Shown here: piece after piece, positions 14,051 to 14,317 of the stretch
Layout: each line of letters opens with the position of its first letter
How positions within the stretch are numbered: position 1 is the first letter of the stretch
Source: Escherichia coli
GTDB lineage: Bacteria > Pseudomonadota > Gammaproteobacteria > Enterobacterales > Enterobacteriaceae
DNA length: 64,000 bases
Direction: 5' to 3' (one strand)
NCBI RefSeq assembly: GCF_045037415.1
Contig: NZ_CP173438.1
The notes under the pieces: model-generated
What the model was told of the DNA's origin: nothing
Databases searched by the model: none
The model's input: only the letters and a program-made list of their open reading frames with translations
Position numbers and translations under genes: made by a program

Positions 14051-14149
14051 GTGTTGATAACAAGCCGGGTCAGTATCGCAAGATGCAGGCCCGGCTATTT
14101 ATGATGGGCAGAGAGCCGTCGCCCAAAATGACATGAAGAGATAATAACT

Positions 14150-14262
14150 ATGGATGTCATGAGAAGTGTTCTGGGAATGGTGGTATTGCTGGCTATTGCG
14201 TTTTTGCTGTCAGTAACCTGATGAGTGCTACTATTGCAGGATTCTTTATTGGTTTAGCGTAG
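14150..14262 (+). pseudogene. nupX: Internal-deletion remnant of NupC-family transporter gene nupX
   Basis: ATG-initiated MDVMRSVLGMVVLLAIAFLLSV closely parallels the psuT N-terminus (MDIMRSVVGMVVLLAIAFVLSV), then joins out of frame to a segment encoding NLMSATIAGFFIGLA*, matching the psuT C-terminus (SNLMSATIAGFFIGLA*); ~1.1 kb of coding sequence is missing. Confidence 0.65.
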
Positions 14263-14317
14263 TGCGCAATTTATGAGCCGGATAAGATGCGGTCAAGCGT
14301 CGAATCCGGCAACATTG

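Follow-up and report, generated by a model that had tools for sequence, protein, structure and literature searches.

An inherited 1,138-nt deletion probably reduced nupX to a 113-nt pseudogene in most phylogroup B2 Escherichia coli

Lineage-specific pseudogenes produced by short-homology deletions are known from enterobacteria. They combine a clean microhomology junction with a lost reading frame and clade-wide inheritance, while close relatives keep an intact orthologue. The gene considered here, nupX (yeiJ; b2161 in K-12), encodes a nucleoside:H+ symporter of the NupC/CNT family and is located between rihB and yeiI. In a ΔnupC derivative of K-12, plasmid-expressed NupX supports cytidine and uridine transport of low efficiency and no transport of gemcitabine, whereas NupC and NupG are efficient nucleoside transporters (PMC11241209). 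In our full-text literature search on nupX and yeiJ, the particular deletion reported here was not described in any paper.

In the E. coli DNA analysed here (hereafter the window, 64,000 nt), the same place between rihB and yeiI is occupied by a stub that, unlike K-12 nupX, lacks 1,138 of the 1,251 nt and has a broken frame. The stub agrees with the known enterobacterial examples in its clean microhomology junction, its lost frame, its inheritance across a clade and the intact orthologue in close relatives, and the sole extra feature is the presence of recombined flanks in a few genomes. It is an ordinary lineage-specific pseudogene that is already in public annotation, though unnamed: in the RefSeq PGAP annotation of strain SK1144, positions 14150-14215 correspond to a pseudogene called “hypothetical protein; incomplete; missing C-terminus”.

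SK1144 (NZ_AP018784.2, 1704646-1768645) is collinear with the window and differs from it by 5 SNPs in 64,000 nt; it is listed as a diffusely adherent strain of phylogroup B2 (PMC12366417). The gene order psuK-psuG-psuT-yeiL-rihB-[nupX]-yeiI-nfo-yeiH is common to the window, K-12, PSJ-22, A34 and E2348/69. Features of the locus are given below in window coordinates.

10964-12214, plus strand: psuT (yeiM), CNT transporter gene of the pseudouridine operon, 416 aa, intact
13109-14050, plus strand: rihB, ribosylpyrimidine nucleosidase, 313-aa ORF upstream of nupX
14063-14096, plus strand: strong hairpin (folding energy -26.3 kcal/mol, z = -5.1) separating the rihB stop codon from the nupX start codon, with AUUUAU after it
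14150-14216, plus strand: 5′ nupX remnant, nt 1-67 (22 codons and 1 nt), with the native start codon
14150-14221, plus strand: residual 23-codon ORF MDVMRSVLGMVVLLAIAFLLSVT, the first hydrophobic segment of NupX, ending in TGA
14214-14216, plus strand: deletion junction TAA, the 3-nt overlap of the blast matches
14214-14262, plus strand: 3′ nupX remnant, nt 1203-1251 (last 15 sense codons and TAG), out of frame
14277-14310, unstranded: REP-like palindrome GCCGGAT...ATCCGGC between the stub and the convergent sugar-kinase gene
14318-15406, minus strand: sugar-kinase gene at the yeiI position, 362-aa ORF (WP_000999817.1), intact, of a divergent allele class

The extent of the stub was defined by a blastn comparison of the whole window with the intact 1,251-nt nupX of strain PSJ-22 (locus L002, 4051-5301), which places it at 14150-14262 on the plus strand (113 nt). 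Nucleotides 1-67 of nupX match 14150-14216 with 97% identity and nucleotides 1203-1251 match 14214-14262 with 100% identity, the two matches overlapping by 3 nt, TAA, at 14214-14216. Identity of these orthologous ends to intact nupX alleles ranges from 94% to 100%. The 5′ 67 nt agree with nupX of E2348/69 at 66 positions, with a SNP at 14188, and the 3′ remnant is identical to the nupX 3′ ends of PSJ-22, A34 and E2348/69.

The missing 1,138 nt make up 91% of the coding sequence and equal 3×379+1, which leaves the two ends out of frame and the locus with the capacity for at most a 23-residue N-terminal peptide. The ATG at 14150 (ATG GAT GTC ATG) opens MDVMRSVLGMVVLLAIAFLLSVT, which stops at a TGA (14219-14221) that is the first of two stop codons spanning 14219-14224. 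The C-terminal residues are found in the +2 frame, which reads NLMSATIAGFFIGLA* and ends with the TAG at 14260-14262. A full-length transporter ORF would have about 416 codons, and the stub offers 23. Judged by its sequence, the stub is a pseudogene, and the transporter cannot be made from the broken frame.

Comparison of the PSJ-22, K-12 and E2348/69 contexts locates the left breakpoint in intact nupX at ...GTCAGTAA/ACAAG... and the right breakpoint at ...CTTTCTAA/CCTGATG... (slashes mark the breakpoints), and the window reads ...GTCAGTAACCTGATG... across the junction. A TAA is present at both breakpoints (GTAA/ACAA and CTAA/CCTG), of which a single copy is kept in the stub. The junction is wholly explained by the two gene ends, with no foreign DNA, and there is no mobile element near it.

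A preliminary description, made from the window alone, had recognised a precise deletion internal to nupX, and the alignments with intact alleles, the position of the stub and its N-terminus bear this out. Its outline of 22 N-terminal and 16 C-terminal codons joined out of frame, with roughly 1.1 kb lost, was accurate, and its junction at about 14215-14220 can be refined to the TAA at 14214-14216. The comparison with K-12 that it proposed shows that the reference locus is full length, since K-12, PSJ-22, A34 and E2348/69 all hold a 1,251-nt nupX at this place. The genes on either side were described as intact, and both are indeed full length (313 and 362 aa).

The only other sequence in the 64-kb window that matches nupX by blastn is psuT (10964-12210, 79.6%), and there is no second nupX copy. 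Intact nupX and psuT are related by 89% amino acid and ~79.5% nucleotide identity, and PsuT has a C-terminal peptide identical to that of NupX, but psuT is a distinct and intact locus. The 5′ end of the stub matches psuT at 58 of 67 nt as against 66 of 67 for E2348/69 nupX, and its N-terminus reads MDVMRSVL as in NupX rather than MDIMRSVV as in PsuT. Gene conversion or recombination between psuT and nupX was considered as a cause of the deletion and rejected. The 35 nupX-like sites among 212 informative positions of psuT are scattered and form no tract, and the intervening yeiL and rihB are retained.

The psuG-psuT region is itself unusual. Between ~10100 and 12250 the window has 86-93% nucleotide identity to K-12 and PSJ-22, while PsuT retains 98% identity at the protein level; in the adjoining genes yeiL, nfo and yeiH the nucleotide identity to K-12/PSJ-22 is 98-100%. 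It is the second unusually divergent block near the locus, next to the kinase gene described below, and most of its differences are synonymous. Two patches within psuT (~11296-11653 and 11942-12166) distinguish E2348/69 from the window.

The distribution of the deletion was examined in 5,426 complete RefSeq genomes of E. coli. Each of three different queries that span the junction retrieved the identical, uninterrupted junction from 970 of them (~18%, about one in six); among these carriers, the match had 90-95% identity in one genome and 95-99% in 79. When intact nupX served as the query, ~4,446 records gave a full-length match of at least 90% identity, where “full-length” refers to the length of the DNA match and not to the reading frame. 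In ~980 records the sole best match was psuT at ~80% (963 just under and 17 just over). On these counts, the 1,138-nt deletion is the event that accounts for essentially all complete genomes without nupX. The survey across E. coli that the preliminary description had recommended thus confirms the deletion, which had been put down to this strain: it is present here, but it is lineage-wide and occurs in most B2 E. coli.

Carriers of the junction include ABU 83972, ATCC 25922 and the Nissle-derived isolate EcN_Sk, and in the intact-gene survey the one match of nupX length in APEC O1 is psuT. We take all four to be B2 strains. The window-type psuT allele, which diverges from the K-12 type by ~10% at the DNA level, is found at 99% identity or more in 986 genomes, a number near that of the 970 junction carriers. 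E2348/69, which also belongs to B2, combines an intact 1,251-nt nupX (WP_000382943.1) with a haplotype nearly identical to that of the window. Its nupX differs from the surviving 113 nt by one SNP, its RihB and YeiL are identical to the SK1144 proteins, and it has 19 differences from the window over 12215-14216 and 13 in the ~4 kb to the right. A34 likewise combines an intact nupX with flanks similar to those of the window. The existence of an intact gene on the near-identical E2348/69 haplotype implies that the deletion arose within B2, which suggests an origin on an E2348/69-like allele followed by inheritance in most of the phylogroup.

We consider it very probable that the stub is an inherited B2 pseudogene, formed by one 1,138-nt deletion and spread by descent, with a loss that was most likely near-neutral. 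A single event in a B2 ancestor would have removed nt 68-1205 of nupX, a position ambiguous by 3 nt. We propose that it occurred at the TAA microhomology, most likely by replication slippage or by illegitimate recombination independent of RecA, because TAA is all that the breakpoints share, the junction contains no foreign DNA and there is no mobile element in the vicinity. A microhomology of this length supports a mechanism only weakly, as 3 nt or more are expected in an estimated ~5% of random junctions. The broken frame would leave at most the 23-residue peptide and abolish the NupX transporter. The allele would then have spread with its lineage to ~18% of the complete genomes of the species, and on occasion have been moved or re-flanked by homologous recombination.

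Several carriers have flanks that differ from those of the window. HH97 has K-12-type psuT and rihB, with a window-type segment comprising the stub and ~1 kb to its right, and from this arrangement it is a plain recombinant import of the deletion. EcN_Sk (NZ_CP172017.1) has a window-type right flank and a K-12-type rihB (locus L008, 3001-4042) whose product, WP_000415429.1, is the same protein as in MG1655. Its K-12-type sequence continues to 4 nt before the nupX ATG, where the B2-type stub begins; by the pattern of its variants this is a flank replacement of the HH97 kind, with a recombination end-point abutting the pseudogene. Z1323CEC0015 and HH45 share the PSJ-22-type variants that lie 23 and 17 nt to the left of the junction. 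HH45 has four further variants at +12 to +24 nt, and Z1323CEC0015 has no window-specific SNP on either side of the junction.

The deletion could in principle be an error of assembly, or a hot-spot event that arose independently several times on different nupX haplotypes. A full-length nupX collapsed in assembly is suggested by nothing other than the 79%-identical paralogue psuT 2 kb upstream, and it is extremely unlikely: the junction is a 3-nt match within one gene rather than between paralogous repeats, yeiL and rihB between psuT and nupX are retained, and the same junction appears in 970 complete genomes, from many laboratories. Because these 970 genomes were assembled independently, we regard the deletion as real. 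Repeated origin of the same 1,138-nt deletion is doubtful. It would account for the identical junction in Z1323CEC0015 and HH45 on a PSJ-22-type left arm (-23 and -17 nt), for the four different variants of HH45 at +12 to +24 and for the lack of window-specific SNPs in Z1323CEC0015. However, such haplotypes are a handful among 970 carriers, HH97 is a clear recombinant, and the breakpoints have only the 3-nt microhomology, with no longer repeat or palindrome to juxtapose them. Moreover, the flank and stub variants of HH45, Z1323CEC0015 and HH97 all occur in intact nupX alleles too. Recombination with an intact allele must stop at the junction, where homology ends, so that conversion tracts reaching up to it are to be expected. 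In our judgement, one origin with later recombination is thus the likely explanation of these genomes, with the caveat that it needs recombination end-points very near the junction, given the variants of HH45 and Z1323CEC0015 within 12-23 nt of it.

Other explanations concern what the loss or the stub might do for the cell. Loss of nupX might have been selected, for example against uptake of toxic nucleoside analogues or against a costly membrane protein in the B2 niche (extra-intestinal or gut), and near-fixation in a large and successful lineage (970 carriers compared with 986 genomes having the window-type psuT allele) is in keeping with this idea. Furthermore, three nonsynonymous mutations and one synonymous mutation in nupX were reported from one long-term stationary-phase culture (PMC7858067). 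These four point mutations are a weak hint of selection, but none is a knock-out, and they do not represent loss-of-function alleles. Fixation through clonal descent requires no selection, and ~4,440 genomes of other lineages as well as the B2 strain E2348/69 keep nupX, which makes a selected loss unlikely. The broader proposition that the deletion is recurrent or positively selected, with more than one acquisition or an advantage-driven spread by recombination, we judge to be quite improbable; if it were true, losing a minor pyrimidine-nucleoside importer would be advantageous to the B2 (extra-intestinal pathogenic) lineage. The stub could also have been kept as a functional small membrane peptide encoded by the 23-codon ORF, or as a regulatory element for rihB, given that it keeps the native start codon together with the upstream region and that the ORF corresponds to one hydrophobic helix. 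We consider this highly unlikely. No Rfam family matched at E<=1 over 12900-15500, promoter-like and terminator-like sites between 12950 and 14450 did not outnumber those of shuffled sequence, and a strong hairpin is situated between rihB and the stub. Conservation of the stub is explained by recent common descent, and its variants are those of intact alleles.

The effect on nucleoside uptake suggested in the preliminary description is plausible but probably small. Little effect is expected because NupX is a weak transporter (PMC11241209) and its paralogue PsuT is intact 2 kb upstream. From its similarity, PsuT may partly cover the lost function, and it would remain alongside the main transporters NupC and NupG, whose genes are outside the window and are presumed to be present. 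The loss itself most likely had little or no effect on fitness.

No new biology is implied by the stub. What is added is that it is named, dated relative to E2348/69, found to be near fixation in B2 and seen occasionally with recombinant flanks. The name nupX can now be given to the fragment that RefSeq calls an incomplete “hypothetical protein” in ~970 complete genomes. Most B2 E. coli, including Nissle-type strains, ATCC 25922 and APEC O1, are without NupX and keep the upstream nucleosidase gene rihB. This is relevant to metabolic models and to work that applies K-12 findings on the uptake of nucleosides or nucleoside drugs to B2 strains.

The neighbouring genes and intergenic elements were also compared. 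RihB has 99.7% amino acid identity to the K-12 protein and is WP_000415422.1 in SK1144, with the same protein in E2348/69. The hairpin at 14063-14096 after rihB is a possible terminator or attenuator by its predicted fold; a simple terminator scan did not call it. The REP-like palindrome at 14277-14310 (fold -21.9 kcal/mol on the plus strand and -16.5 kcal/mol on the minus strand) is the same in deleted and intact alleles. In K-12, the nupX-yeiI spacer has an extra REP-like insert of ~51 nt (window 14263-14317 compared with K-12 locus L003, 5302-5407), which is missing from every carrier examined as well as from the window, PSJ-22 and A34.

The gene at the yeiI position, called yeiI in the preliminary description, is intact as described, yet it is a deeply divergent allele with 85.7% amino acid identity to K-12 YeiI. 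Its core is 72-75% identical to K-12 yeiI at the nucleotide level, with a divergence peak at ~14500-15100, and PGAP gives the name yeiI only to the K-12-type gene. The protein is 99.7% identical to that of PSJ-22, and the DNA is near-identical to A34 and E2348/69. Identity bands suggest that ~2,100 genomes have the window-type kinase and ~3,300 the K-12 type, and in HH45 and HH97 parts of both types are combined in a mosaic. From these comparisons, the divergence apparently reflects either a long-standing allelic dimorphism or the import of a segment whose boundaries are sharp. Elsewhere in the window, yehK (~63214-63530, minus strand) is a frameshifted pseudogene in the SK1144 annotation, and likewise in E2348/69.
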